Shown: positions 4,370-50,096 of the stretch, piece after piece
Numbering within the stretch: position 1 is the stretch's first letter
How the letters are laid out: each line of letters starts with the position of its first letter
Assembly (NCBI GenBank): GCA_964487605.1
Contig: CAZARU010000014.1
Coordinates: 2,495 to 66,494 of the forward strand
Length of the DNA: 64,000 bases
Origin: an uncultured Polyangiaceae bacterium
GTDB lineage: Bacteria > Myxococcota_A > Polyangia > Polyangiales > Polyangiaceae
Direction: 5' to 3'
Program-made: the position numbers and the translations under genes
The notes under the pieces: generated by a model
What the model was told of the DNA's origin: nothing
The model's database searches: none
What the model saw: only the letters and a program-made list of their open reading frames with translations

Positions 4370-6214
4370 TCAGGCGCCCGCGCCATCGTCACCGCCACCG
4401 TACATGGCCTCGGCGATCTCGAACGTGGCGTTCTCGAGCCGAGCGTAGGCCTCACGAATCGCATCCAGATCGCTGCCGCCTTCGAGCACGTGCCGGAGCG
4501 CCGTCAGGTCCGCGCGAATGGAATCGACACGCTCGGCGTCGAGGAGATCGCTGTAGCCCTCGATGGCCTGTTCGGTGGTGTAGATGAGGGTTTCCGCCTG
4601 ATTCTTGAGTTCGGCGAGCTCCTTGCGGAGCTGATCCGTCTCGGCGAACTTCTCGCCCTCGGAGACCAGGCGGTCCACCTCGTCCTGGCTCAGGCCGCTC
4701 GTGGGCGTGATGTTGACGGTCTGAGCCTTGCCCGTACCCAGGTCCTTCGCCTCCACGGAGAGGATTCCCTCGGCGTCGATGCGAAAGGTCACCTGAATCT
4801 TCGGTACTCCACGGGGCGCTGGCGGAATCCCCGTCAGCTCGAACCTGGCGAGACTGCGATTGTCGGCCGCCATCTCCCGCTCGCCTTGGAGCACGTGAAT
4901 GGGAACGAAGGGCTGGTTGTCGACGCTCGTCGTGAAGATCTCGCTCTTTTCGGTGGGGACGGTGGTGTTGCGATTGATGAGCTTCGTGAAGACCCCGCCG
5001 CCGGTCTCCACACCGATGGACAGCGGCGTCACGTCGAGGAGCAGCACCTCGTCGATCTCGCCGCCGAGGGCTCCACCCTGGATCGCCGCGCCCACGGCGA
5101 CCACCTCGTCGGGGTTCACGCCCTTGTTGGCGTCCCGACCGAAGAGTTCCTTGACCGCCTTCTGAACGGCCGGCATGCGCGTCATCCCTCCGACCAGCAC
5201 GACCTGGTCGACGTCACCCGGCTTCATGCCCGCGTCGGTGAGCGTACGGCGGCAAGCGTCCATGGTGCGCTCGACCAGATCCGTCGTCATGATCTCGAGT
5301 TCGCTGCGCTTCATCGAGCGCTCGAGGTGCAGAGGGCCGGCGTCGCCCGTGGCGATGAACGGGATGTTGATCTCGGTTTCGAGGGACGAGGACAGCTCGT
5401 GCTTCGCCTTCTCGGCGGCTTCGCGCAGCCGCTGAAGCGCCATGCGGTCCTTCCGAAGATCGATGTCGTTCGTCTTCTCGAACTCCTCGGCGAGCTTGTC
5501 GACGATCCGGACGTCGAAATCCTCGCCGCCGAGGTGCGTGTCGCCGCCCGTGGCCTTCACGTTGAAGACACCTTCGCTGATTTCGAGGATCGAAATGTCG
5601 AACGTGCCACCACCGAGGTCGTACACGGCGATGCGCTCTCCGCCCTGGCTGTCCAGGCCGTACGCGAGCGACGCCGCGGTCGGCTCGTTGATGATGCGCT
5701 TGACGTCGAGCCCGGCGATCCTCCCGGCGTCCTTGGTGGCCTGCCGTTGCGCGTCGTCGAAGTAGGCCGGAACCGTCACGATGGCTTCGGTGACGGCTTC
5801 ACCGAGGTACGCCTCGGCGATCTCCTTCATCTTGCCGAGGATGAACGACGAGAGCTCGGGCGGAGACATCTTGGATCCCCGGATTGCGACCCACGCGTCG
5901 CCGTTGTCGGACGCGACGACCGAGTACGGCACCGACCTGGAATGCTTCTGGACGTCCGGCGAATCGAACTTCTGCCCCATCAGACGCTTGGCGGCGTACA
6001 CCGTGTTCTCGGGGTTCGTGGTGGCCTGCCGCTTGGCGACCTGACCGACGAGGCGCTCACCCGACGCTACGAAGCCGAGAAACGACGGGGTGGTCCGCGC
6101 CCCGTCCGCGTTGGGGATCACCTTCACTTCGGGCGCACCCGTGGCCCCCGTCCCCTCGAGGACGGCCACGCACGAGTTCGTCGTGCCCAGGTCGATGCCG
6201 ATGATCTTGCCCAT
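4370..6214 (-). CDS. dnaK: molecular chaperone DnaK (Hsp70)
   Basis: Canonical N-terminus [18 protein letters not shown]. Also [18 protein letters not shown] and a full substrate-binding and lid region. 614 aa. Confidence 0.97.
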
Positions 6215-37354: not shown

Positions 37355-39261
37355 CGATCCACCGTTCGGAGCGTCCGCGAGAGTGTGCGCGCGCCAGAGA
37401 ACCCCTTGGCCTCCGTGGACCAGAGGTCGGCGGTCACCGCCGAGAGCTGCCGCGCGGCTCGGCGATGCAGCTCCGCGACCTCCTTCGCGTCGCTCACGCG
37501 CGTGAGCGGGAAATCGGCGAGCGCTGCGGCGGCGAGCCGGGCCACGTCGTGTCCGAGGGTCTCGGACCAGGTGGGGGCACCGTAGCGTTCCGCCCAGCGC
37601 GTCAGCTCGTCGGGCGCCGGCGCGCGACGACGGAACGGGAAGGCCCCCGCTCCGACGGCGACCAGCGGCAGCGAGACGCGCGGCGAAGCCACGAGCGAAG
37701 CTGCATCCAGGCCGAGCGCGAACATGGCGGAGTATCCGGACGCTTGAGCCTCCCGCAGCACGTCGGAGGCGCACTCCGCGTCTGCCGTCACCAGGACGGC
37801 GTCCACGCGCCGTCGCTTCCACTCGACGAAAGGGAATCTCGAGCGAGCCGCCGCCGCCGGTCCTGCGAGGCACGCCGCGTCCGCGGCACCGAGGACTGGA
37901 ACGTCGTCGAAGCCCCGCTGCGCGAGCGCCTGCCGCAGCGTGTCGTCCGCGGCCGCGCGAGACTCTCCCACCGCGAAAGCGAACTCGCGGTCGGGCTCGA
38001 GACCGGAGGGATCGCCGACGATGACGACGGGGATGGCGACCGCCTCGGCGTGGGCTGCGGCACGAGCACGCGTGGCGTCGTCCATGCCGGCGACGAGGAT
38101 GCTCGCACCCTCCCCTGCGAGCTCGGCGAGCCCGCGCTCGAGACCGCTCGAGTCGTCGCGGATCACCAGCTTGACGGCGTCGGCGCGCGCCGCGCTGGCC
38201 GGAAGACCCAGCGCGCGCGACATCCCCGCGGCCACCTCCGCCGACCGCCGCCGTGCAGCGTCGGTGGACAGCGTGAGCAGCAGCCCCACGGTGCGCCCCG
38301 CGATGCTGGGCTGCACGCCTCCCCCGGTGGAGAGCCGCGCGAGACGACGCCCCAGGTCGCTCGAGTGGATTCGCGGGGGGCCGGATTCCAGGAGTCGGCT
38401 CGCGAGGCTCGGATCGCCCCGGTCGAGCGCGTCGGTGGCGAGCATCCGCCAGCTCGCCTTCCGCATCCACTCGCGCGCGCGACCGATCGACGACTCGTCG
38501 CGCGCCGTTCGCTTCGACGCGGCGTCGAGGCTGACGAGCGAGCGCTCGAGGGCGTCGCGCGGCACTCGGAGGAGCTGGGCCTCCACGGCCGCGGTGACGA
38601 GCTCGCGGTCGTGCTCGTCGGCGTGCGCCAGCCACGCGATCATGTGAGTGACGGCCTCGTCCCATCTGGATGCGGCCAGCGCCGCCAGGACGATCTGCTC
38701 GCCGAAGAGCCGGCGGTCCTCGGCATCGACCACCTTGCCGACGAGCGGTCTGAGTCGCGCCAGCGCAGCTTCGGCCCTTCCCTGTCGGACGAGCACGGCG
38801 GCTTCGACGATGACCGCGGCGTCCCGCGCGACTCCGTTCGGGCCGCTCGCCGTCTGCCTCGCGAGTTCCCGGGCGCCGGCGACGTCTCCCTGCTGTGCTC
38901 GCAGCCACGCCAGGAGCACGCGGGCACCGCGCGCGCGTCGGTCACCGGCGTGCTGCGCGACGAACGCGCGCAGATCCGCCTCGAGGGGCCCTCGCCGTTC
39001 GGGCGGGAGCGCGAGCCATCTGCGCTCGAGCGAGCGAAACTGCCGCTGCGCAGCCGCGGACTGGGCGAGCGCCGGTTCGGGGCGGACAGAGCGCTTGTCG
39101 GCGCCACCGCAGCCGAGGGCCGCGATGCCCGCGAGCAGGACGAAGACGGAGAGCGCGCGGCTTGACGGAGCGACCCCGTTCCCGTATCCCCGCGCGCGGG
39201 TTGGTTCGCTCGTCGTCGCGGGCTTCGGCCCGAGGTGACGCTTGTTCCGAGAGCAGTCCAT
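37351..39261 (-). CDS. LpoA-like lipoprotein: N-terminal TPR-like helical domain plus type-1 periplasmic-binding-protein fold
   Basis: Lipobox-like IAALGC. A helical N-terminal half. The C-terminal half has the pattern VGLLLTLS...ILVAGMDD...IPVVIVGD typical of LivK/LpoA-like folds. The function call is tentative. The ATG at 39261 would overlap the sdhC start by 20 nt. Confidence 0.6.
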   Translation of the reverse strand: MDCSRNKRHLGPKPATTSEPTRARGYGNGVAPSSRALSVFVLLAGIAALGCGGADKRSVRPEPALAQSAAAQRQFRSLERRWLALPPERRGPLEADLRAFVAQHAGDRRARGARVLLAWLRAQQGDVAGARELARQTASGPNGVARDAAVIVEAAVLVRQGRAEAALARLRPLVGKVVDAEDRRLFGEQIVLAALAASRWDEAVTHMIAWLAHADEHDRELVTAAVEAQLLRVPRDALERSLVSLDAASKRTARDESSIGRAREWMRKASWRMLATDALDRGDPSLASRLLESGPPRIHSSDLGRRLARLSTGGGVQPSIAGRTVGLLLTLSTDAARRRSAEVAAGMSRALGLPASAARADAVKLVIRDDSSGLERGLAELAGEGASILVAGMDDATRARAAAHAEAVAIPVVIVGDPSGLEPDREFAFAVGESRAAADDTLRQALAQRGFDDVPVLGAADAACLAGPAAAARSRFPFVEWKRRRVDAVLVTADAECASDVLREAQASGYSAMFALGLDAASLVASPRVSLPLVAVGAGAFPFRRRAPAPDELTRWAERYGAPTWSETLGHDVARLAAAALADFPLTRVSDAKEVAELHRRAARQLSAVTADLWSTEAKGFSGARTLSRTLRTVDR

Positions 39262-40018
39262 CGCGCGGTCGTCGGCACCCACGGCGTTCATCGCCCGCCG
39301 ATTGTTCTCCATCGCGGGCGTGGTCCCCATCGGTGCGTTCCTGGTGATCCACCTCCTGACGTACGCGCGGGCCCTGGGGGGTCGGGCTTCACTCGAGGAG
39401 GCGTTGGACCGCCGCATGAACACACCCTACCTCGTGTTGGGCGAGGTGGGCCTCCTGTACCTCCCGCTGCTGTACCACGCCGCCTACGGGATCAAGATCG
39501 CCCTCGAAGGACGCCCGAACGTCGGTGCGTACGGCCACTCTCGCAACTGGGCCTACGTGCTCCAGAGAGTCACCGGGGTCATCGCCCTGATCTACATCGC
39601 GGTGCACTTCTGGCAGTTCCGGCTGCAGATGCTGCTCGGCCGCATGGTCCTCGACGACCTGTATCCGAAGCTCTGTGCCTCGCTGTCGTCCACGTCCACG
39701 GCCGGCATACCGCTGGTCGCGATCGGGACGCTGCTGGGCATCGCAGCGTGCGTGTTTCACCTGGCGAACGGTCTCTGGGGGTTCTGCGTGACGTGGGGCA
39801 TCACGGTTTCTCGCAGCGCGCAGCGCATCGCTGGCGGGGTCTGTGGAGCGCTCGGCGTGCTCCTGTTCCTCGTCGCGGCGCACACGGTCATCTACTTCGC
39901 GACCGGAGCCGCCCTGTTCGACGTGGGCGGCCGCCGCGCGGGGACCTCGATGAGCTGCAAGGACCAGTCGGCAACGTCGGGGGTTTCCGAAGGCCGGACC
40001 GAGTGGGCGCGCAGGTGA
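39242..40018 (+). CDS. sdhC: succinate dehydrogenase/fumarate reductase cytochrome b subunit, b558 (five-helix, di-haem) type
   Basis: FIARRLFSIAGVVPIGAFLVIHLL resembles the B. subtilis SdhC N-terminus. Four conserved His sit in TM helices (VIHLL, LYHAAYG, AVHFW, VFHLANG). TTG start. Confidence 0.78.
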   Translation: MFREQSIARSSAPTAFIARRLFSIAGVVPIGAFLVIHLLTYARALGGRASLEEALDRRMNTPYLVLGEVGLLYLPLLYHAAYGIKIALEGRPNVGAYGHSRNWAYVLQRVTGVIALIYIAVHFWQFRLQMLLGRMVLDDLYPKLCASLSSTSTAGIPLVAIGTLLGIAACVFHLANGLWGFCVTWGITVSRSAQRIAGGVCGALGVLLFLVAAHTVIYFATGAALFDVGGRRAGTSMSCKDQSATSGVSEGRTEWARR

Positions 40019-41847
40019 AGGCGGCGCGCGCCAGAGCGCGACGAGTCATCGTCGTGGGAAGCGGTGCCGCGGGTGCAGCGGCGGCGATCCGACTCTGCGA
40101 ACTCGGCGTGCCCGTCACGCTGGTCTGCCTCGAGGGAGTGGGCGTGTCCGAGTCGGCCCTGGAGACCGGAGGGATCGACGCGGGCTCGGATGACGACGAG
40201 GTGGCGCATCACGTGGAGGACACCCTGAACGCCGCAGGCGGCCTCGCTCACCGAGCGCCGGTCGTCGAGCTGGCACGTTCGGCTCCGCGCGTGCTCGGGA
40301 TGCTCGAGCGCATCGGAGTACCGTTCGAGCGCACGCGCGGAGGCGGCATCGCGCGGCACCGGGGCGAAGGCGCGTCCGAGGCACGAACGGCGTACGCCGG
40401 CGCTGCCACGGGGAGCCTGGTCGTGCGCGCCCTCGGAGCGCAGCTCGCACGCTGGAGCGCCGCAGACGTGACCACCCCGCAGGGCGGCATCGCCGCGGGA
40501 GAGCGGATGCTACGCCTGGCGAGTCACCGCGACTTCGTGTCCCTCGTCCTGGACGACGCCGGTGCGGCCGTCGGCGTCGTCGTGCAGGACACGCGCACCA
40601 TGGCGTTCGAGGCGCTCACGGCAGACGCCGTGTGCCTGGCCACCGGCGGATTCGGCGCACTCTTCGCCGAATCCACGGGGTCGGCAGAGGCGACCGGTGC
40701 ACCCATCGCCGCGGTTGCTCGACAGGGAGCCGCACTCGCGAACCCGGAGCTCGTGCAGCTGCACCCCACGACGTTCCTGACCGCGGCGAAGCGACGCGTC
40801 GTGTCCGAGCGAGCCCGCAGCGCGGGCGCGCGGGTGTGGACGGCAAAGGGCGCGGACGACGCACGGCGCGCGCGGGAGATCGCGGAGCGCGAGCGTGACT
40901 ACCTGTTCGAGCGGACCTCGCCGAGCCTGGCCAACCTGCTCGCGAGCCGAGACGCCATCGGGCCGCTCGTCGCCTCGCTCGAGCGGAACCACGCCGCCTA
41001 CGTGGACCTGCGCCACCTGCCCCAGGCCGAGGCCGCGCGGGTGCTGGGTCCTTCCGGCGAGGCGTACGCGCGCGCGATTGGTGACGACCCCCGGGGCCTG
41101 GTTCGCGTCGTCCCGGCAGTTCACCGGTGTCTGGGAGGCCTGTGGGTCGACTTCGAGGTCGCTCCCGACGGCCGTCTCGCCAGTGGGAGCGTGCGCAACC
41201 AGGCGACGACGGTGCCGGGGCTCTACGCCGCCGGGGACTGCGAGTATTCGATGCACGGCGGCTGCGGGCTCGCAGGCAACGCCCTGTCCGGAGCGATCGT
41301 CGCGGGGACGCGGGCCGCGGAGTCCATCGCCATCCGCCAGACCGCGCTGGTGCGCAGCGCCTTCGACCTGCCGAGTTCGGTGTTCGAGAAGGCACAGGCG
41401 GCCGCCGAGGCGGACGCGGAGGCGCTCGCCAAGGCCCACGGGGCCGGAGACGGCGAGAACGCGAGGCAACTGCACGACGAACTGGCGGAGGTCATGTTCC
41501 GGCACGCCGCGCTCCCCACGGCGGGACGCGAGGTGGACGACGCCGTGGGCGCCCTCGAAGCGTTGCGCGAGCGTGCGGCCAAGGCGCGAAACCCGGACAC
41601 CAGCCCGACGAGCAACGACGAGATCCGGTTCCTTCGGCACTTGACCGCAATGCTCGACCTCGCAGGCGCCGTCCTCACCGGGCGGCGCGAACGCGCCCGT
41701 GAGGCGGAACCTCGGACCATGTTGATGGTTCACGAGGCCGGCGCCTTCGTCGCAACGGATCGCGTCACGTACCGTTCGGGCACGGCGACACTGTCCATCA
41801 CGCGCGCCGTGACCACCGCACGAGCCGAATCGGAAGCGAGCCACTGA
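40015..41847 (+). CDS. SdhA/FrdA-family flavoprotein subunit, catalytically divergent
   Basis: The VIVVGSGAAGAAAA FAD fold, RTAYAGAATG, LATGGFG, QLHPT, GLYAAGDCEYSMHGG. The covalent-FAD His (SESALETGGI) and the NR of HGxNRL (HGGCGLAGNAL) are both missing. The GTG start overlaps the sdhC stop (GTGA). Confidence 0.8.
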   Translation: MKAARARARRVIVVGSGAAGAAAAIRLCELGVPVTLVCLEGVGVSESALETGGIDAGSDDDEVAHHVEDTLNAAGGLAHRAPVVELARSAPRVLGMLERIGVPFERTRGGGIARHRGEGASEARTAYAGAATGSLVVRALGAQLARWSAADVTTPQGGIAAGERMLRLASHRDFVSLVLDDAGAAVGVVVQDTRTMAFEALTADAVCLATGGFGALFAESTGSAEATGAPIAAVARQGAALANPELVQLHPTTFLTAAKRRVVSERARSAGARVWTAKGADDARRAREIAERERDYLFERTSPSLANLLASRDAIGPLVASLERNHAAYVDLRHLPQAEAARVLGPSGEAYARAIGDDPRGLVRVVPAVHRCLGGLWVDFEVAPDGRLASGSVRNQATTVPGLYAAGDCEYSMHGGCGLAGNALSGAIVAGTRAAESIAIRQTALVRSAFDLPSSVFEKAQAAAEADAEALAKAHGAGDGENARQLHDELAEVMFRHAALPTAGREVDDAVGALEALRERAAKARNPDTSPTSNDEIRFLRHLTAMLDLAGAVLTGRRERAREAEPRTMLMVHEAGAFVATDRVTYRSGTATLSITRAVTTARAESEASH

Positions 41848-41854
41848 GGACGGG

Positions 41855-42679
41855 ATGCCGAACGAAGCCACCGAGACGCCCGAAGCTGCCGCAGCCCCCC
41901 CCGCCGAGGCCAGGGCGGCGGCACGGCGTGTCGTGGATGAGCCGAAGGTGAGGCTCCGAGTTCGTCGGCAGGACCGGTCCGATCGGCCGGAGACGCGGCG
42001 CACGGAGGAGTTCGAAGTCGACGGGCGAGCCGGAATGACGGTGCTGGACGCCCTGGCGGCGCTGCGTCGGAGCCCGACGACCGCGGACGGCCGCGCCGTG
42101 GCCCCGGTGGCGTTCGAGGGAAGCTGTCGCGAGGGCACGTGCGGTGGCTGCACGATGCTCATCGGCGGAGTGGCGCGGCTCGCGTGCACGACGCTGGTTC
42201 GGGACGCGAGCCGCAACGGCAAGCCCATCGTGGTCGCGCCGCTGAGCAGGTTTCCCGTCGTGCGCGACCTCATCGTGGATCGCGCGCGATTCGAAGAGTC
42301 CGTGGCGCGGGTCGGCGGCTTCATCGTCGCTGACGACCGCGGCGCGTCTCCCGCGCCGACCGCCCGGGTCAACGCACTTCGGTTCGCACTGGCTGCGTGC
42401 AACGGATGCGGCGCTTGCCTCGAGGCGTGCCCGCAGTGGGGCGAACACTCGGACTTCGTGGGACCCGCGGCTCTGGCTGCCGCGCGCTCTGCCAATCTCC
42501 ACCCGGTGGGCGCCCTCGATCGGGACGCGCGTCTCGACGCGGTCATGCAGCCCGGCGGCGTGTCCGACTGCGGAAAGGCGCAGAGCTGCGTGGAGGTGTG
42601 CCCGTCCGGCGTTCCGCTCACCGAGGCGATGGGCGACCTGGCGCGCGACGTGACGCTCCGCTGGCTCTTCGGGCGCTGA
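41855..42679 (+). CDS. sdhB: succinate dehydrogenase/fumarate reductase iron-sulfur subunit
   Basis: Three cluster motifs: CREGTCGGC...C (2Fe-2S), CNGCGACLEACP (4Fe-4S) and CGKAQSCVEVCP (3Fe-4S). SD GAGGA lies upstream of the ATG. Confidence 0.88.
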   Translation: MPNEATETPEAAAAPPAEARAAARRVVDEPKVRLRVRRQDRSDRPETRRTEEFEVDGRAGMTVLDALAALRRSPTTADGRAVAPVAFEGSCREGTCGGCTMLIGGVARLACTTLVRDASRNGKPIVVAPLSRFPVVRDLIVDRARFEESVARVGGFIVADDRGASPAPTARVNALRFALAACNGCGACLEACPQWGEHSDFVGPAALAAARSANLHPVGALDRDARLDAVMQPGGVSDCGKAQSCVEVCPSGVPLTEAMGDLARDVTLRWLFGR

Positions 42680-42721
42680 GCGCGTCGCCCGGCCGGAGCT
42701 CTTGCGCTAGGCTCCCGCGTC

Positions 42722-43240
42722 GTGCGGGTGCTCGCGGCCGTCCTCGCTTGGTCGAGCTGGGAGCTTTGCGCCTGCGTGGTCCCCGAGGGGCTGCGCCCCG
42801 TCGCGGTCGCGTCCCCCGGCCCCTCGACCACGTCCGCCGACGGCAGCGCGCCCGAAAGCCTCGAGGCCCACTCAAGCCCTGCCCCACGTGGCTCGACCTA
42901 CTCGTCGGGCGATGGCGAGCCGAGCGGTGGGCGGGCGACGGGCGGCGGGCGGCGGCGACCCTGCATGTTCGATCCATCGAACGCGACGTATCGCGAGTGC
43001 GCCCACCCCAGCATGGGACGCTGTCATCACTACACCACCACCTGCGAGCCCGACTGCATGTGGAACCCCAAGGAGAGCAGGCACCAGCGCTGCGCCCACC
43101 CCAGCATGGGACGCTGTCATCACTACACCACCACCTGCGAGCCCGACTGCATGTGGAACCCCAAGGAGAGCAAGCACCAGCGTTGCGCCCACCCCAGCAT
43201 GGGCGCGTGCCACCACTTCACGACGACGTGCGAGCCGTGA
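42722..43240 (+). CDS. exported Cys/His/Met-rich tandem-repeat protein (172 aa), family unknown
   Basis: GTG start 42 nt after sdhB. Signal-like MRVLAAVLAWSSWELCAC, a P/S/G linker, then three 31-aa units ending CAHPSMG[RA]CHH[YF]TTTCEP. Substitutions between the repeat copies are mostly synonymous in this frame. Confidence 0.6.
   Translation: MRVLAAVLAWSSWELCACVVPEGLRPVAVASPGPSTTSADGSAPESLEAHSSPAPRGSTYSSGDGEPSGGRATGGGRRRPCMFDPSNATYRECAHPSMGRCHHYTTTCEPDCMWNPKESRHQRCAHPSMGRCHHYTTTCEPDCMWNPKESKHQRCAHPSMGACHHFTTTCEP
42998..43237 (+). repeat. 93-bp tandem repeat, 2.6 copies (42998-43090, 43091-43183, 43184-43237)
   Basis: Copies 1 and 2 differ at 2 of 93 nt. Copy 3 is truncated by the stop codon and diverged mainly at third codon positions. 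Confidence 0.95.
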
Positions 43241-43256
43241 GCGTCCGGTGCAGCGT

Positions 43257-45077
43257 GTGAGCGTGCCGCCGACGGCACGCTGGCCGGGCGTCGCCGCGAT
43301 CCTGTTCGTCGGCTGCGCCCCGGCGCGCGGACCCGCGGACGCGGCGGAGCTGGCCGCATTGCGCTCCGATCCGAGGGCCCTCGTCGAGGAGGTGGCGCGC
43401 ATCCGCGGACTCGAGGACAGCCGCAAGACGCGCGTCGTGTTCGACGACGAACCGGAATTCGCTCGGGCCCTCGATGCGAAAGTGAAGGGTGACGCGATCG
43501 GTCCAACGTCGTCCGACACGGCCGCCTTCTTCGCGACGTTCGATCCGCCGTCGGCGCGTGCCAGGCGTGGCTCGTCGATTCACGAGGTGCTGGACGAGCA
43601 AGTCGTCGCCTTCTACGACGAGGGCACGCACAGCGTTCACGTGCGTGAAGCCGCGCTGAAGAAGAAGAGCGCCGACGAGCTCAGGTCCGTGCTGGCCCAC
43701 GAGATCCAGCATTCGCTGCAGACGCAGCACCTCGCGTTCCCCGACCTGGCGAAGGTGCTGGACAAGGACACGCGACTCGCGCTGAACGCCGTCCTCGAGG
43801 GGGACGCCATGCTCACCATGCTCGCTCACGCGGCGTTCCGACATCGCGTTCCCGTCAACCGCGCGCTCGCCAGGGCGTCACAGACCGTCGCCGAACGTTC
43901 GTTTCGCGACTACGCGAGCGCGAGCGGTACGTCGAGCGTCCTGGACCGAGCCCCATCGCTGGTCCGTGCTCGCCTCGTCTTTCCGTACCTGCAAGGCCTG
44001 ACGTTCGTGGGTGCGATTCACCGCGCCGGCGGCTTCGACCTGGTCAACCGAGTCTACGCGGCGCCGCCGAGCACCACCGAGCACATCCTGCACCCGGAGA
44101 AGTACCTCGCCGGCGAGCCTGCGGTGCCGGTCGAACCGCCGGACGCTCCGGAAGGCATGGAGGTCGTCGCAAGCGGTCGGGTCGGTGAGCTGCAGACGAG
44201 GGTCATCCTCTCACGCTGTCTGCCGCACGCGGCGGCGGCGTCGGCCGCGGCCGGCTGGGGGGGCGATGCGTTCACGATCGCCAGGGGCGCTCGAACGGGG
44301 CCGGCGCTGGTCTGGGCGACCACCTGGGACGACGAGCGCGAAGCGGGGGAGTTCGAGGCGGCCGCGAGCGAGCTCGTACGCTGCACGCGCGCCGCGGGCG
44401 CCGTCGGGCTGCCTCGAGGCGATTCGGTCGTGCGCCGCGGACTCCACGTCGCGGTCGTCCGCGGCACCTCCGAGGGCGGCGAGGCCCTCGCCGTTCAGGC
44501 CCTCGCTCGCGTGGGCGAACGCCCCGTCGCCGTCCCTCCGCTCGGTGGCGTCTCCATCCCGCCCATGCGTCGCGCGCGATCGTTTCGCGCCCCCTACGTG
44601 GCGCAGGGAACCTGGGTCAACGAAGAGCTCGGGCTGGTGGCCTCGATGCCGCCCGGGTTCGGCGCCGAGATGCCGAACGCGCGGACGGTCCTGTTCACGC
44701 GCCGAGAGCCCACGGCGATGATCGCCGGCATCGCCCTGAGCGACCAGGTCGCCAGCGGAGCGACCATCGACGAGCTTCACGCGGAGCTGGCAGCGTCCCT
44801 CGAGCAGGTGCTGCGCGGGCGCGAGCTCGAGTATGCGGGAGGCCGCGACGTCTACCTGCCCCACCTGGGACGCGCGGCGGAGCGCGCGTGGTACGTCGCA
44901 GGGACCGAGGCGGGGCTGCGCGCGCTGGTCGTACCCGTGTGTGACGGGACGGGGAGCTTCGTGCTGTGGGCCATCTGGGTCGACCGCGACGGGAGCTGGC
45001 TCCTCAGCCAGTGGCTCTCGACCGTGCGACCCACGGCCTGGGCCGAGCCGCCGATCTGCGCCGAGCTCAACCCTTGA
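43257..45077 (+). CDS. putative zinc metallopeptidase lipoprotein (HExxH ... EGDA)
   Basis: GTG start 14 nt after the repeat-protein stop. Lipobox-like ILFVGC. LAHEIQHSLQ (HExxH), followed about 30 aa later by AVLEGDAMLTM (candidate third ligand Glu). A C-terminal region of about 350 aa carries no recognised motif. Confidence 0.7.
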   Translation: MSVPPTARWPGVAAILFVGCAPARGPADAAELAALRSDPRALVEEVARIRGLEDSRKTRVVFDDEPEFARALDAKVKGDAIGPTSSDTAAFFATFDPPSARARRGSSIHEVLDEQVVAFYDEGTHSVHVREAALKKKSADELRSVLAHEIQHSLQTQHLAFPDLAKVLDKDTRLALNAVLEGDAMLTMLAHAAFRHRVPVNRALARASQTVAERSFRDYASASGTSSVLDRAPSLVRARLVFPYLQGLTFVGAIHRAGGFDLVNRVYAAPPSTTEHILHPEKYLAGEPAVPVEPPDAPEGMEVVASGRVGELQTRVILSRCLPHAAAASAAAGWGGDAFTIARGARTGPALVWATTWDDEREAGEFEAAASELVRCTRAAGAVGLPRGDSVVRRGLHVAVVRGTSEGGEALAVQALARVGERPVAVPPLGGVSIPPMRRARSFRAPYVAQGTWVNEELGLVASMPPGFGAEMPNARTVLFTRREPTAMIAGIALSDQVASGATIDELHAELAASLEQVLRGRELEYAGGRDVYLPHLGRAAERAWYVAGTEAGLRALVVPVCDGTGSFVLWAIWVDRDGSWLLSQWLSTVRPTAWAEPPICAELNP

Positions 45078-47412
45078 CGTTGCCCGAGCCGAGCTCGGTC
45101 AAGGCGCGGTCGAGCGCTGCGACGAGCAACCGCGCATCGATGGCGTCGAACGGGAGAGGGGGCTTGATCTTCAGCACGTTGCGTCGAGGACCGTCACGAC
45201 TCAGGAGCACGCCCGCGCGTCGGCAGTGCTCCACGACGGAGGCGGCGAGATCCGTCGCCGGAGTCTTCGCTCGGCGATCCGCAACGAGCTCCACGCCGAC
45301 GTAGAGACCGAGCCCCCTGACGTCACCGATGGTCGGGTGCCGGTCCGCCAGGGCCGCCAGGAGCTCGAGCAGCCCGGCGCCGGTGCGTGCCGCATGCTCG
45401 GGCAGCCCCTCGGCCGACAGTGCGTCGAGCACCGCGAGCGCGACGGCGCACGACACGGGATTGCCACCGAAGGTGTTGAAGTACTCCATGCCGTCGGCGA
45501 ACGCGTCGGCAATGGCTCTCGTCGTCACGACGGCGCCCACGGGGTGCCCGTTGCCCATGGGTTTTCCGAGGGTGACGATGTCGGGCAAAGCGCCCTGCTC
45601 CGCGAAAGCCCAGAAGCTCGGACCCACACGGCCGAAGCCGCACTGGACCTCGTCGGCGACCGCGACGCCGCCGGCTTCACGAACCAGCTCGAAGGCGCGA
45701 GCCAGGTAGCCCGGCGGAGGGACGACCTGACCGGCGCAGCCCGGTAGCGACTCCGCGAAGAGCGCCGCGATTCCGGCCCCGCCGGCAGCCGCTCGTTCGA
45801 GCGCGGCTCGAACGTGATGCTCGGCGAAGGCCGGACCGCCCACGCCTGCGGCGTCGCGATACGGGTCCGGACACGCCGTGACGTGCACCCAAGGTGCCCG
45901 CCCGGAGCCGCCCGGACCGTCGAACTTGTACGGCGACAGCTCCACCAGCGACGTCGTGTTGCCGTGATAGGCGTGATCGAGCACCAGGACGTCGCGCCGA
46001 CCCGTCGCCTTGCGCGCGAGACGCAGCGCCAGCTCGTTCGCCTCGCTCCCGCTGCACACGAAGAAGCAGACCTGCAGGTGATCGGGAAGCTTGGCCAGGA
46101 GCCTTTCGGCGAGGCGCAGCACGTTGTCGTGCAGGTACCGGGTGTTCGTGTTCAGGGTCGCCATCTGCTTCGCACCGGCGGCGACGGTGCCGGGGTGGCA
46201 GTGCCCGACGTGGCAGACGTTGTTGACGCCATCGAGGCTCGCCCAGCCATGCTCGTCGAAGAGGTACTGCGCAGCGCCTCGCACGACGTGCAGCGGCTCC
46301 TCGTAGGACAACCCCAGGTTCGACCCGAGCACCCGACGTCGAGCGGCCGCGAGCTCGGCGGCGGACCTTCGCCGCGTCTGCGAACGTGTCACCCCGCAGT
46401 GCGTGCCCACGCGTTCGACGATCTCCGCGGGCGAGATCGCCGCGAGCGTCGAGAGGAGCTCCCAGGCCGGCGCCTCGCTCACGAAGGCGTACTCCGCGGC
46501 GTGGTCCTGGCGCGCGGCCAGCGCCGCCGAGACCACGGTCACGGCGGCGCGCATTCGAACCGCATCACCGAACACCTCGATCTCGACGGACGCGAGCGGC
46601 GAGACCGAGTGATAGCCGGCCGCGACCTCGGCCAGGGCGTCCACCGGATCGTCGGGCCGATGAAAGGCCGCGTAGGTCGCGGCGATGGCCGGGTCGAACA
46701 CGCGACACGTCTGAACCATGTCGCCGAAGTCGATGAGGCCGGTGGGAACGCCGTCGGAGACGAGGACGTTGTGGTCGTTCGCATCGCCGTGGACGAGTCC
46801 CTGCGGTAGGTCACGGATGCGCGTTGCCACGCTCGCGCGGAACTGCAGCAGCGCCCTCTCGACGAGCGCTCGCCGGGCGGGATCGCCGATGGCGTCGAGC
46901 GCGCCCGCAGTCCACTCCGCTCGGCGAAGGTCCCACTGCAACGTCCGGTGGCGCCGCGGGTGCTCGAGCCCATCCAGCCCTGACCCGACTTCGGCGAGCC
47001 CTGCCCCGAGTCGGCGCAGCGCCCTGCCGGAGAGACGGCCCTGGACGGCCATGAGCGTGCCCGGGAGGAACGTCACGACGCGTGCAGCACGCTCGCCAAG
47101 CGAGCAGGTGACGCGCGCGTGGAGTCGCCCATCGGACGTCGCGACGACCGCGGGGGTCGCGAGCGAGGCGGCACGCGTGGCCAGCCGCGCCAGCGCTGCG
47201 CACTCGAGGTCGACGTCGTGGGGGTCGGCGTCCGGGTGGACGAGCTTGAGGACGTAGGATCGCTCTCCGCAGTCGATGGCGAAGTTCTGGTCGGCGTACC
47301 CGTCGAGCCTGGCGGCCCGCCCGTCGAGGCCGAAGTGCTCACGTGCGAGGCGAGCAGCCTCCTCGGCACCGACGACACCCCCGGTCGCGGCGATGGCGGG
47401 TCCCGTCTGCAC
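45067..47412 (-). CDS. fusion of APH-type (aminoglycoside/hydroxylysine-kinase-like) phosphotransferase and class-III PLP aminotransferase-fold enzyme of the AGXT2L phospho-lyase type
   Basis: N-terminal half: HGDANDHNVLV and IDFGD. C-terminal half: NNVCHVGHCHP, NTNTRYLHDN, SGSEANELALRLAR, LDHAYHGN, DEVQCGFGRVG and TLGKPMGNGHP (PLP Lys). GTG at 47412 lies 2 nt after the upstream stop. The track ORF over-extends to 47778. Confidence 0.85.
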   Translation of the reverse strand: MQTGPAIAATGGVVGAEEAARLAREHFGLDGRAARLDGYADQNFAIDCGERSYVLKLVHPDADPHDVDLECAALARLATRAASLATPAVVATSDGRLHARVTCSLGERAARVVTFLPGTLMAVQGRLSGRALRRLGAGLAEVGSGLDGLEHPRRHRTLQWDLRRAEWTAGALDAIGDPARRALVERALLQFRASVATRIRDLPQGLVHGDANDHNVLVSDGVPTGLIDFGDMVQTCRVFDPAIAATYAAFHRPDDPVDALAEVAAGYHSVSPLASVEIEVFGDAVRMRAAVTVVSAALAARQDHAAEYAFVSEAPAWELLSTLAAISPAEIVERVGTHCGVTRSQTRRRSAAELAAARRRVLGSNLGLSYEEPLHVVRGAAQYLFDEHGWASLDGVNNVCHVGHCHPGTVAAGAKQMATLNTNTRYLHDNVLRLAERLLAKLPDHLQVCFFVCSGSEANELALRLARKATGRRDVLVLDHAYHGNTTSLVELSPYKFDGPGGSGRAPWVHVTACPDPYRDAAGVGGPAFAEHHVRAALERAAAGGAGIAALFAESLPGCAGQVVPPPGYLARAFELVREAGGVAVADEVQCGFGRVGPSFWAFAEQGALPDIVTLGKPMGNGHPVGAVVTTRAIADAFADGMEYFNTFGGNPVSCAVALAVLDALSAEGLPEHAARTGAGLLELLAALADRHPTIGDVRGLGLYVGVELVADRRAKTPATDLAASVVEHCRRAGVLLSRDGPRRNVLKIKPPLPFDAIDARLLVAALDRALTELGSGNVKG

Positions 47413-47414
47413 GC

Positions 47415-48125
47415 TCAGGCCCCGCCGACGAGCGCGGCGGCCTGCGCGAAGTCGCCATCCTCGACGGCTCCCTGCTGGACGCACCGGACCTTCCCGGCCG
47501 GGTCCAGCAGCACGTGAACGGGAAGCTCCGGATCGGGCGCCACGCCGAGTCGAGGGAGCCAGTCCTCGCGTTCCTTGCCCTCTCTCAGCCAGTAGGACGC
47601 GCGCGCGCCCACCGGCGCCGCCAGCAGCGATTCGCGAAGCTGACGCGCGTCGTCGTCGATGGACACGAACGTCAACCTGAACGGCTTGCCCTGGGTCGTC
47701 AGCTCGCGCTGCCACGCGATCAGCCGCGGCATCTCTTCCTTGCAGGGCTTGCACCAGGCGGCCCAGAAGTTGATCCACGTCCAGCGGCCACCACCCACCT
47801 CGACCGCCTCCGGCAGCGGCGCGGCGTCCGGTGCGTTCACGCGGCCGATGACGGTGTCCGGCACGGACTTGTCGGAGCCGGGGCGCCCCCGCTCGCAGAG
47901 CTTGGGGCGGCGCTCCGCTCCGCGCGCGACCGACGCGCCGGGAACGGCGGAAGCCCGCGACGGAGGCGTTGGGGCCGCGCCGGGACTCGCGGCGACGGCC
48001 TGGCTGCGCGCGCGCGTCGTCGTGGCGGACGGCTCTGCCTTCTCGCAGCCGAGCATTGCGGCGGCGGAGGTCGCGAGGACGGCGACCATCAGCGCGGAAA
48101 GGCAGGGCCGAGGCTCAGAGGTCAT
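47415..48125 (-). CDS. TlpA/ResA-like thioredoxin-fold lipoprotein
   Basis: Lipobox-like AAMLGC. Trx motif FWAAWCKPC. Its ATG overlaps the stop of the upstream gene (ATGA). Confidence 0.8.
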   Translation of the reverse strand: MTSEPRPCLSALMVAVLATSAAAMLGCEKAEPSATTTRARSQAVAASPGAAPTPPSRASAVPGASVARGAERRPKLCERGRPGSDKSVPDTVIGRVNAPDAAPLPEAVEVGGGRWTWINFWAAWCKPCKEEMPRLIAWQRELTTQGKPFRLTFVSIDDDARQLRESLLAAPVGARASYWLREGKEREDWLPRLGVAPDPELPVHVLLDPAGKVRCVQQGAVEDGDFAQAAALVGGA

Positions 48126-48820
48126 AGGCGACAATCCACCCAGGACACGAAGGCGGTCTGGTTGATGGACGCGTCGGTGCACTTCGCGGTGGGCTTCGAG
48201 TTGGGCCACTCGCAGAACTCCTTCGGGAGCTGAGCGAACTCCTCCCCGAGCCACAAGAGCCCCACTCTCCGTTCCAGGTCCTGCTCTCCGGTGGACTCCT
48301 TCAGGTGGAACATCACGGAGTTCGCACGCCGGTGGGAGAGCGCGCGGTTCTTCGACGAATCTCCCGATTGCGATGCGCGCCCCACGACGAAGAAGTACCG
48401 GGCACCCTTGCGGGCGAGCCAGGTTTCGTCGAGGAGCTTCCTGGCGGCGGTGTCGATCTCGTCCCTGCCCGTGTCGAACTTCAGGATGGCACCACGACTC
48501 CTGAGGGGCGAGAACAAGGCGTTGAAGTCCTCGTCGTCGATGGAAGCGAAGTTCTTGACGTCCGAAGGCTTGCAGCCACGCCGCGCGTTGCCCTCTCCGA
48601 GCAGACCGCAGGAATGCAGGACGCGCTCCAGCACCTCCTTGAACTTCGGCGTGCAGTAGGCCGCTTCCGCGTGGTCGGCCACCGCCACCTTCGGCTTCGC
48701 GGCGTCGGGCTCCTCGAGGCGACGCCCCGCCTCCTTCACGCTGGCCCGCACCCCGAACGACGCGGAGGTGATGAGCGCCAGCAGAGTGAAGAGGCCCGCG
48801 GCGGCCGGCGCGCGGATCAC
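48122..48820 (-). CDS. OmpA C-terminal-like domain protein with N-terminal anchor
   Basis: A hydrophobic N-terminus (AAAGLFTLLALITSASF) and an OmpA_C-like block (FDTGRDEI...FFVVGRASQSGDSSKNRALSHRRANSV). GTG at 48820 lies 10 nt after the upstream stop. Confidence 0.7.
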   Translation of the reverse strand: MIRAPAAAGLFTLLALITSASFGVRASVKEAGRRLEEPDAAKPKVAVADHAEAAYCTPKFKEVLERVLHSCGLLGEGNARRGCKPSDVKNFASIDDEDFNALFSPLRSRGAILKFDTGRDEIDTAARKLLDETWLARKGARYFFVVGRASQSGDSSKNRALSHRRANSVMFHLKESTGEQDLERRVGLLWLGEEFAQLPKEFCEWPNSKPTAKCTDASINQTAFVSWVDCRL

Positions 48821-48830
48821 GGCGTCTCCG

Positions 48831-50096
48831 TCATCGCAGGACCTCCGGCGCGAGCTGGCCGAGGGTGTAAACGAGACCCAGGTCGGTATCCTCTTCGCAC
48901 ACGCGCGTGGTACCCACGAACATCTGTGGCGTGGAGACCGGGATCGAATTGTCCGTCGCAAAGTGCAGGTGACGGTTGAGTCGTTGCTTGGTTTCCTTCG
49001 ACGATGCGCACTTCACGAGCTCGTCGCCCCAGCGGCGCCGCACCACCTCCTCGAGGGTGGCGACGTCTTGCTTGCCGGCTCGCGCGAGGACGTCTTGCTC
49101 CGCGTAGGCCCACTCCAGCACTTCGAGCGCACGCTCCTTCCCGCACAGCACCGCACGGGAAAGAGCGCAAGCGCCGGGGTGAAAGGCGCGGTCGAGCATC
49201 CAGTTGCACTCGCCGTCGAGAGGAAACATCACGAGCGTGACGTCGAGCTTCGGGTAAATGCCCTCCGCCACGAGACGCTCGTGGAACGCCTTGCAGGTCG
49301 GGCAGAGAGGATCCTCGAACAGCGTCACGGCCTGCACGGCGCGCGACCCGCCGAAACGAAGGAGCGCACCGTGCTCGTCCGTCGGCTTTCCCAGGGAGCC
49401 ACAGGTCCGAAGGTGCGCCCGATGGTCCGGGAGGGACTGGGTGTAGGCGATCGCAGGCAAGAGCGTCGTGACGCCGAGCACGACGAGCCACACCAGCGGG
49501 AAGACGACGCCGAGGACCGGACGGCCCGTCGGGGCTCGGGCCGGGGCGTCCCAGGGCTCGCCCGGCAGCGTGCCCGACGGACCCGACGCCTCGACCGACC
49601 GCCGGATCGTCAGCAGCCCTGCGAGCCCGCCGAGAGCCAGAACGAACGACGCGACGTAGATGCCGACGCACGTCTTGCAGAACGTTCCGAGCTTCGTCAG
49701 GGAGATCACGAACATGACGCCCGACGCGACGAGCGGTGAGAACGAAACCACCGCGAAGAAGCCGACGGCCTTCCGGGGCGCCCCCCGCCCGGCCAGCAGC
49801 AGGTAGATCGCGAACGCCGCGAAGAACGCGAACGCACCGAGCGCGAACAGCGAGATGGGCACCCCCCCCCAGTACTGCTCCTTCAAGAGTGCCGAGTACG
49901 GGCTGTACATCGCCGCGCGACACGCCTCCGCATCGTCGGTGGCCGCAGCGCCGGGCACGAAGCTGCAGTGCAGGTCGTGCAGCTTCCGATCGAGATGCGA
50001 CGCGTAGTCCGCGGTCGACGTCCACGCGAAGACCAGGCCGAGCACCGCGCCAACCAGCGCGACGCTCGAGGGGATGCGAGAGTTCGAGCCGAACAT
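48831..50096 (-). CDS. VKOR-family quinone reductase fused to DsbA/thioredoxin-like domain (disulfide-bond formation)
   Basis: Four to five TM helices, a loop Cys pair (LHCSF...EACR) and a membrane CxxC (FCKTCVGIY). The C-terminal Trx-like domain carries LCPTC. Confidence 0.85.
   Translation of the reverse strand: MFGSNSRIPSSVALVGAVLGLVFAWTSTADYASHLDRKLHDLHCSFVPGAAATDDAEACRAAMYSPYSALLKEQYWGGVPISLFALGAFAFFAAFAIYLLLAGRGAPRKAVGFFAVVSFSPLVASGVMFVISLTKLGTFCKTCVGIYVASFVLALGGLAGLLTIRRSVEASGPSGTLPGEPWDAPARAPTGRPVLGVVFPLVWLVVLGVTTLLPAIAYTQSLPDHRAHLRTCGSLGKPTDEHGALLRFGGSRAVQAVTLFEDPLCPTCKAFHERLVAEGIYPKLDVTLVMFPLDGECNWMLDRAFHPGACALSRAVLCGKERALEVLEWAYAEQDVLARAGKQDVATLEEVVRRRWGDELVKCASSKETKQRLNRHLHFATDNSIPVSTPQMFVGTTRVCEEDTDLGLVYTLGQLAPEVLR

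Follow-up and report, generated by a model that had tools for sequence, protein, structure and literature searches.

Bufferins, which include BufA1 (DUF2282) and BufA2 ('Buf_6/12Cys'), are periplasmic copper-binding mini-proteins that are modified by MNIO enzymes and belong to the RiPPs, peptides made on the ribosome and modified after translation (PMC11626156, PMC12452194). Their precursor genes are located in operons together with MNIO (DUF692) and DUF2063 genes (PMC12452194). By likeness of design, bufferins appear to be the nearest conceptual analogue of the mini-protein described here, which is encoded at positions 42722-43240 on the forward strand of a window of 64,000 nucleotides from an uncultured Polyangiaceae bacterium (GenBank assembly GCA_964487605.1, contig CAZARU010000014.1, positions 2,495 to 66,494). 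Exported cysteine-rich repeat proteins are a familiar kind of protein; judged from database comparisons and structure prediction, the family to which this mini-protein belongs and its predicted fold are both unannotated. The mini-protein would be a small extracytoplasmic, non-enzymatic binding module consisting of a signal, a tether and a disulfide-held head that has recently gained a unit, a reading that we hold with moderate confidence.

Gene, repeat units and family

The mini-protein gene was complete, started with GTG and encoded 172 amino acids plus a stop codon, and an identical protein (P0001) was present in an NCBI-derived collection. The same start, strand and length in the list of open reading frames (ORFs) bore out an earlier note on this DNA, which had described a GTG-initiated ORF of 172 codons at this position. 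Three units of 31 residues were recognised, unit 1 (PCMFDPSNATYRECAHPSMGRCHHYTTTCEP, 42959-43051), unit 2 (DCMWNPKESRHQRCAHPSMGRCHHYTTTCEP, 43052-43144) and unit 3 (DCMWNPKESKHQRCAHPSMGACHHFTTTCEP, 43145-43237), all on the forward strand and with the cysteine spacing C-x11-C-x7-C-x6-C, and these scored 46.3, 40.6 and 38.9 bits, respectively, against the unit hidden Markov model (HMM). The 93-residue head contained 12 Cys, 11 His and 6 Met. The three units with four Cys and two Met each were as the earlier note had them, while the four to five His that it gave for each unit were not, the counts being 3, 4 and 4. The G+C content at third codon positions (GC3) was 0.88 in the mini-protein frame compared with 0.70 for the window as a whole.

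A word-indexed search returned the identical protein and six relatives of 96-187 amino acids, in all of which two or three units came after a hydrophobic N-terminal segment. Nine loci in metagenome-assembled genomes (MAGs) of Myxococcales, Polyangia, Myxococcota and Bradymonadales were identified by a pattern scan of the GTDB species representatives, and a metagenome scan added four further loci. Two of the nine GTDB loci (L005 and L013) were in bins labelled 'uncultured Rickettsiales' with 68% GC; their contigs also encoded HpnN-like resistance-nodulation-division (RND) transporters, and these bins look mislabelled. A unit profile of 31 positions, built from 19 units, was scored against 1.84 billion representative proteins and matched 106 clusters (50% identity) at E<=1e-3, with 41 at E<=1e-10. 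Most of the matched proteins were 120-220 amino acids long and nearly all full-length members had three matched stretches, the cysteine spacing being 11/7/6 in 188 units and 11/8/6 in 41. Most members carried a signal peptide or a lipobox (many of the form L-x-[GA]-C), and a non-conserved, low-complexity linker of roughly 40-70 amino acids preceded the units. The window protein had the repeat features of the family, with three units, four Cys in each at 11/7(8)/6 and a Gly two residues before the third Cys (C3).

The carriers were Kofleriaceae, Polyangia and Bradymonadales MAGs and a few Bacteroidota, placing the family mainly in Myxococcota, and one divergent Bacteroidota cluster included WKN34402.1 from the cultured Tunicatimonas sp. 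TK19036 / Roseihalotalea indica. The only name given to any member by its source was 'hypothetical protein' (Kofleriaceae and Polyangia MAGs), and literature searches for a described Cys-rich repeat lipoprotein of Myxococcota returned nothing relevant. On the comparative sequence evidence, the mini-protein gene is real and belongs to an unnamed family. The mini-protein, SdhB, NadA, Asd and ThyX of the window were each the sole member of their 90%-identity cluster, which suggests a sparsely sampled lineage; the closest homologues of the downstream DUF8575 protein were from Polyangiaceae.

Among the apparently complete proteins 86 had three units, eight had two, five had one and none had more than three. 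Two-unit genes with their own stop codon were confirmed on long contigs (L004/L011 and L012). The apparent one-unit proteins were unreliable, because P0031, with seemingly one unit, is a truncated product of the three-unit gene at L016, and the last residues of P0007, GRASCRERV, are a translated Illumina adapter at a contig end, the full gene (L019) having three units. At L013 a single unit (4660-4817) with no signal peptide and with an upstream in-frame stop followed a short direct repeat (GAGAAGTCCC twice), and this is probably a decayed copy or remnant, or a collapsed assembly. Apart from this single-unit locus and L010, which contained a run of N, the repeat frames were intact across the loci. 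Orthologues with intact frames and a unit number varying between two and three, for which the earlier note had proposed a search, were found. Pairwise ratios of non-synonymous to synonymous substitution (dN/dS) between orthologues over three units were 0.14-0.9, mostly 0.14-0.5, with synonymous sites near saturation. With these ratios below 1 and the high GC3, the expectation that the ORF is translated in its frame under purifying selection was supported.

Tandem Repeats Finder (TRF) detected a 93-bp period with 2.6 copies at 42998-43236 (93% matches, score 406). Direct comparison within this array showed a recent 93-bp tandem duplication (42998-43183, forward strand), the copies at 42998-43090 and 43091-43183 differing by 2 nt, at 43080 and 43090. 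The two differences in 93 nt previously given for copies 1 and 2 therefore hold in the TRF register only; in the unit register that the earlier note itself had used, units 1 and 2 differed at 22 nt, all within the first 39 nt, with no difference in the last 54. Units 2 and 3 differed at 2 of the first 39 nt and at 11 of the last 54 nt. Unit 2 is a chimera, with its first 39 nt like those of unit 3 and its last 54 nt identical to those of unit 1. This mosaic of unit identities is the trace of an unequal crossover in which the second half of one older unit recombined with that of another, a recent event that made a three-unit gene out of a two-unit gene and is supported by the existence of two-unit genes on the long contigs mentioned above. 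Eight synonymous and four non-synonymous differences separated units 2 and 3 (dN/dS 0.06). Every codon change listed earlier for this pair was present, and three replacements were found (R>K, R>A and Y>F) where only two had been reported.

Conserved cysteines and predicted fold

Only the 12 Cys and 3 Gly were invariant across 41 and 57 aligned members, and the Pro after each fourth Cys (C4) and His 24 of unit 1 (residue 103) were at least 90% conserved family-wide. Across the wide family, divergence has given the units separate R1, R2 and R3 types, with unit 1 typically reading C-[MVA]-[YF]-H-x-G...C-L...G-x-C-F-H-[FY]-G and units 2 and 3 reading C-M-[FY]-D...G-x-C-x-x-[FYW]-G. All units were alike in the subfamily of the window protein and followed C-M-[FYW]-D-P-x5-[YH]-[KR]-x-C-A-H-x-S-M-G-x-C-H-H-Y-T-T-T-C-E-P, with H24, T26, G20 and the four Cys invariant within the subfamily. 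Conservation of the Cys and His positions, which the earlier note had proposed to test, was seen for the 12 Cys; His was conserved in the subfamily only, besides His 24 of unit 1. A thirteenth Cys was located 4-5 residues ahead of C1 of unit 1 in 54 of 81 wide-family proteins (e.g. P0018, P0019 and P0030), and the His at positions 5 and 24 of wide-family unit 1 were strongly conserved. As judged from these alignments, the extra Cys and the two His of unit 1 could together make up one metal or cofactor site, missing from the window's subfamily.

The middle unit of P0037, P0052, P0092 and P0093, representatives of one clade, had lost C1 and C4 together and kept C2 and C3. This paired loss points to disulfides that join C1 to C4 and C2 to C3 and speaks against a metal site of four thiolates, and two disulfides per unit in this arrangement are the most likely state of the cysteines. 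A thioredoxin-like (TlpA/ResA-type) gene adjoining a gene for a 421-aa VKOR-family protein was located at 47415-50096 on the reverse strand of the window, and the pair is probably the envelope disulfide-forming system of the source organism.

A short, putative N-terminal export signal (MRVLAAVLAWSSWELCAC, 42722-42775, forward strand) was recognised, in which LCAC may be a non-canonical lipobox. The best hydrophobic nine-residue window comprised residues 1-9 (Kyte-Doolittle mean 2.3), and AlphaFold2 (AF2) predicted a short helix at residues 4-9. This was followed by a disordered tether of ~61 residues (42776-42958, forward strand) rich in Pro, Ser, Gly and Ala (G11, S11, P8 and A7 of 61), as indicated by composition and AF2. 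The predicted local distance difference test (pLDDT) in the full-length AF2 model was about 98 for residues 79-172, including unit 1, and 55-67 for residues 1-78, a profile that indicates an architecture of signal, disordered tether and compact head. The composition and the low pLDDT are those of the Pro/Ser/Gly-rich linker proposed before. Every full-length homologue seen had, at its N-terminus, a signal peptide, a lipobox or a hydrophobic stretch, in support of the earlier suggestion of a Sec or lipoprotein signal, and the window copy would likewise be exported.

AF2 modelling of the 93-residue repeat region, for which a 41-row alignment was used, gave an all-beta domain with a mean pLDDT of 97.4 and a predicted template modelling score (pTM) of 0.86. 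Strands were predicted at positions 2-5, 10-14 and 25-28 of each unit, with a small hairpin at 17-22. The maximum of three units together with the high pTM hints at a closed three-unit body. Foldseek searches of PDB gave nothing significant, the best match being the EGFR Cys-rich domain (E 1.9, template modelling (TM) score 0.17), and those of BFVD gave nothing significant either (best E 0.31), with TM below 0.25 in both databases; the predicted domain thus appears to have no structural relative in PDB and BFVD. A sequence-profile search of PDB returned zero matches at E<=10. Neither the window protein nor any of 20 diverse members gave a Pfam (E<=0.01) or NCBIfam (E<=1) match beyond sub-threshold noise, in keeping with the earlier view that the unit belongs to no named family. 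The CxxCH motif of c-type cytochromes was absent from the 172-aa sequence, and the earlier exclusion of a CxxCH haem site was correct.

Genomic neighbourhood of the mini-protein gene

The sdhCAB genes spanned 39242-42679 upstream of the mini-protein gene, and sdhB (41855-42679, forward strand), identified by Pfam matches to Fer2_3 and Fer4, was separated from it by the 42 nt that had been noted. The sdhB stop TGA (42677-42679) was in frame with the mini-protein ORF; the stop-to-stop frame begins at 42680, and 14 sense codons and zero further stops lie between the TGA and the ORF. If the TGA were read through, SdhB and the mini-protein would be fused, although this arrangement is probably a coincidence. 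Rfam and promoter/terminator scans around the mini-protein gene gave no match, and no recognisable Shine-Dalgarno sequence or promoter was found for it.

The downstream neighbour on the same strand (43248-45077) encodes a putative HExxH metallopeptidase lipoprotein of 609 amino acids belonging to DUF8575 (PF26686), with a lipobox FVGC at 43305-43316, HEIQH at 43698-43712 and weak DUF6782 and partial Hvo_1808-family local matches. In-frame GTG codons were present at 43248, 43257 and 43263, of which the first is the start used in the database protein (609 aa), 7 nt after the mini-protein stop rather than the 14 nt stated earlier. More than 300 DUF8575 homologues were present in Polyangiaceae, including Sorangium sp. 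So ce1128; these are uncharacterised putative metallopeptidases, and the family had no sequence relative in PDB. Other genes within ~12 kb on either side included asd, thyX, nadA, a sulfatase, mlaE, an APH-aminotransferase fusion, the thioredoxin-like gene and the VKOR homologue. The fusion (45067-47778, reverse strand) encodes 903 amino acids and joins an APH-type phosphotransferase domain to a class-III aminotransferase.

Neighbours were compared by all-against-all BLASTP of flanking ORFs, precomputed Pfam tables and a pooled Pfam scan of 62 flanking ORFs, with extra loci included. No neighbour was common to the window and the 16 other family loci, nor to these loci among themselves beyond closely related genome pairs. 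The HExxH (DUF8575) and sdh genes were not found at any of the 16 homologue loci, and three DUF8575 loci (L020-L022; 60%, 57% and 45% identity) had other upstream genes and encoded no unit. The absence of linkage in either direction indicates that the adjacency of mini-protein and HExxH genes is specific to the source genome and lends no support to a precursor-protease pair. Synteny with the HExxH gene, which the earlier note had proposed to look for, was thus not found from either side, and its suggestion of the HExxH protein as a processing enzyme is not supported. By these comparisons the mini-protein gene stands alone, and its placement between sdhB and the DUF8575 gene appears peculiar to the source genome.

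No MNIO (DUF692), DUF2063, radical-SAM, YcaO or lanthipeptide enzyme gene was present at 30988-52098 of the window, and the earlier statement that no radical-SAM, YcaO, MNIO or lanthipeptide gene lies nearby was accurate for ~12 kb on either side. MNIO and DUF2063 were likewise not in the Pfam tables of L001-L004, L014 and L015, and none recurred at eight GTDB loci or at L016 and L019, these searches covering the loci only. A gene for a CusA/CzcA-family heavy-metal RND pump (TIGR00914, 962 bits) was located at L016 (7922-11251, reverse strand), 1.8 kb downstream of and convergent with a three-unit homologue. A redoxin gene near L001 was considered as a shared partner and rejected, as it is not orthologous to the thioredoxin-like gene of the window.

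Possible functions and comparison with known systems

In the binding module favoured here, a short signal, possibly lipid-anchoring, would carry the mini-protein across the inner membrane, and a disordered tether of ~60 residues would bear a compact, all-beta, three-unit head of 93 residues. Membrane tethering of the head is probable. The 12 Cys would be structural, with two disulfides per unit made by the periplasmic oxidative-folding system; the VKOR and thioredoxin-like genes are located 4-7 kb from the mini-protein gene. Each unit of the subfamily would display a near-invariant surface (M3, aromatic 4, D5-P6, H16, S18, M19, H23, H24, Y25 and T26-28), giving three equivalent sites for a small conserved ligand, most plausibly Cu or Zn bound through His and Met and not through Cys.

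A His/Met transition-metal site in the subfamily is a tentative suggestion, judged to suit this thrice-repeated surface, rich in His, Met, Tyr and Thr, better than a glycan or other surface ligand or protease inhibition. The His at position 24, the second of the CHH motif and invariant in every subfamily unit, hints at it, as do the 11 His and 6 Met of the head and the homologue near the CusA/CzcA pump. Several observations weigh against a tethered metal-binding module. No other member of the family has a signal peptide as weak as that of the window copy, which also lacks a canonical lipobox, and some subfamily members have other residues in place of H16 (N/A), H23 (Y/N/A/L) and M19 (V/I/A/Q). 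Units 2 and 3 of the wide family conserve neither His nor Met, so that the metal site would be at most a subfamily trait, or the residues may simply be structural. The CusA/CzcA pump was the sole metal-related neighbour seen, a single case among about 16 loci. The fuller proposal, of a new disulfide-locked three-unit fold tethered to the Myxococcota envelope in which the CAHxSMGxCHHYTTTC subfamily is a new class of extracytoplasmic His/Met binder of Cu or Zn, and so a genetically stand-alone counterpart of bufferins with no need of a modifying enzyme, is doubtful.

Four other functions were considered for the encoded protein. A lectin-like or surface-binding module, recognising glycan, peptidoglycan or ice through an aromatic and Thr/Ser/His surface with Y-T-T-T strands and three equivalent sites, is rather improbable. 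The architecture never exceeded three units, the Y25-T26-T27-T28 strand was conserved in every unit and the head is carried on a flexible linker, all as such a module might have, but the TTT motif was subfamily-specific, the wide family having G at position 26, and Foldseek gave no fold match to lectins or antifreeze proteins in PDB and BFVD.

Small tandem modules that are exported and rich in disulfides are a typical form of protease inhibitor, and the gene for a putative metallopeptidase lipoprotein, in the same orientation, starts 7 nt downstream of the mini-protein gene. The mini-protein could therefore be pictured as a tandem-domain inhibitor, like multi-headed Kazal or Bowman-Birk proteins, acting on the DUF8575 metallopeptidase encoded next to it or on other proteases of the envelope or of prey. 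This is improbable, however, as the DUF8575 pairing was not conserved in either direction and Pfam, PDB profile and Foldseek searches detected no inhibitor family of similar sequence or fold.

The earlier note had offered two roles of its own, of which the first was a periplasmic metallothionein-like buffer, in which Cys thiolates together with His would bind Cu or Zn clusters directly. The richness of the 93-residue head in Cys (12), His (11) and Met (6), the probable export of the protein and the one homologue near a CusA/CzcA pump speak for such a buffer. In its Cys-thiolate sense this role found no support, and we regard it as distinctly improbable: the Cys spacing is a rigid framework common to the wide family and is kept where His, Met and other residues vary freely, C1 and C4 are lost as a pair, and AF2 predicts a well-packed beta fold. 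No CxC, CC or CxxC motif is present within the units, and the aromatics at positions 4, 11 and 25 are conserved. Such conserved aromatic residues in each unit are unlike typical metallothioneins. The compartment is, moreover, oxidising, with VKOR encoded in the genome, and no Pfam metallothionein match was obtained.

The second role was that of a multi-core RiPP precursor, with the three units as cores cut out by the adjacent HExxH protein or processed by enzymes encoded elsewhere (e.g. MNIO). The units are repeated, strongly conserved and Cys-rich, the HExxH gene begins 7 nt downstream, bufferin precursors likewise have Sec signals (PMC11626156) and stand-alone bufferin-type precursor genes are known (PMC12452194). 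A precursor is nevertheless highly improbable. No MNIO, radical-SAM, YcaO or Lan enzyme was encoded within ~12 kb and none recurred near the 16 homologue loci, so that a conserved modifying enzyme is missing; the DUF8575 gene was absent from all 16 of these loci and the mini-protein from the three DUF8575 loci; and no DUF2282 match was obtained. The N-terminus appears to be a Sec or lipoprotein signal and not a leader, the three units are predicted with confidence as one compact domain (pTM 0.86), and their divergence into R1, R2 and R3 types in the wide family suggests a fold rather than interchangeable cores.

A reading frame open merely by chance over a tandem DNA repeat between genes in GC-rich sequence, for which the want of a recognisable Shine-Dalgarno sequence or promoter and the many spurious ORFs of high-GC DNA might be cited, was effectively refuted by the comparative data, the protein being conserved in numerous divergent genomes, with synonymous sites saturated and dN/dS under 1, and with a GC3 of 0.88 and a very confident predicted fold in the window copy.

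The near-maximal AF2 confidence, together with the lack of a relative in PDB or BFVD, makes the head of the favoured binding module a good candidate for a new small fold, and a domain of 93 residues is tractable for structural and metal-binding work. With no fewer than 106 clusters at 50% identity, the family is fairly widely distributed among uncultured Myxococcota, and its repeats appear to have been caught in the course of evolution, with homogenised units, a change from two to three and an apparent maximum of three. Should the His/Met surface bind Cu or Zn, an enzyme-independent form of periplasmic metal buffering would be added to those described, and a tempting RiPP annotation is in any case removed as unsupported.

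Tandem small beta-hairpin modules pinned by one or two disulfides are a likeness shared with the furin-like Cys-rich domains of EGFR/ErbB and the EGF modules of LDLR/megalin. The top Foldseek hits to these were, however, non-significant (E 1.9 or worse, TM below 0.22, root-mean-square deviation ~15 A), the Cys spacing differs and the units of the mini-protein never number above three; more broadly, no significant sequence or structure similarity to known disulfide-rich folds (EGF, furin-like, Kazal, hevein or granulin) was detected in PDB and BFVD. The myxo_disulf_rpt (TIGR02232) is a Cys-rich tandem repeat that occurs in many copies in large secreted proteins of Myxococcota. It differs from the mini-protein in the number and spacing of Cys, and no NCBIfam or Pfam match to it was obtained at E<=1.

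Beta-trefoil and beta-prism II lectins have three tandem units in one domain, homogenised or duplicated by unequal crossover, and include shorter two-unit variants. The mini-protein resembles them in these respects, with exactly three units per domain, and differs in that its units are of 31 residues and not about 40, would each hold two disulfides and gave no Foldseek match to a trefoil or prism. CopC, PcoE and CusF are extracytoplasmic and His/Met-rich and do not use Cys as ligands, and they are not disulfide-rich and have no 31-residue repeat. They would be functional analogues if the proposal of a metal site is true, with no sequence-family match. Compared with bufferins, the mini-protein lacks a DUF2282 or NCBIfam match and is accompanied by no MNIO or DUF2063 genes at the loci examined, and its Cys, which occur in multiples of four and at other spacing, are probably disulfide-bonded rather than converted to thiooxazoles. 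Bufferins and the mini-protein are nonetheless alike in being small, Cys-containing and predicted to fold, the mini-protein being probably Sec-exported as bufferins are, with possible periplasmic metal handling in both.

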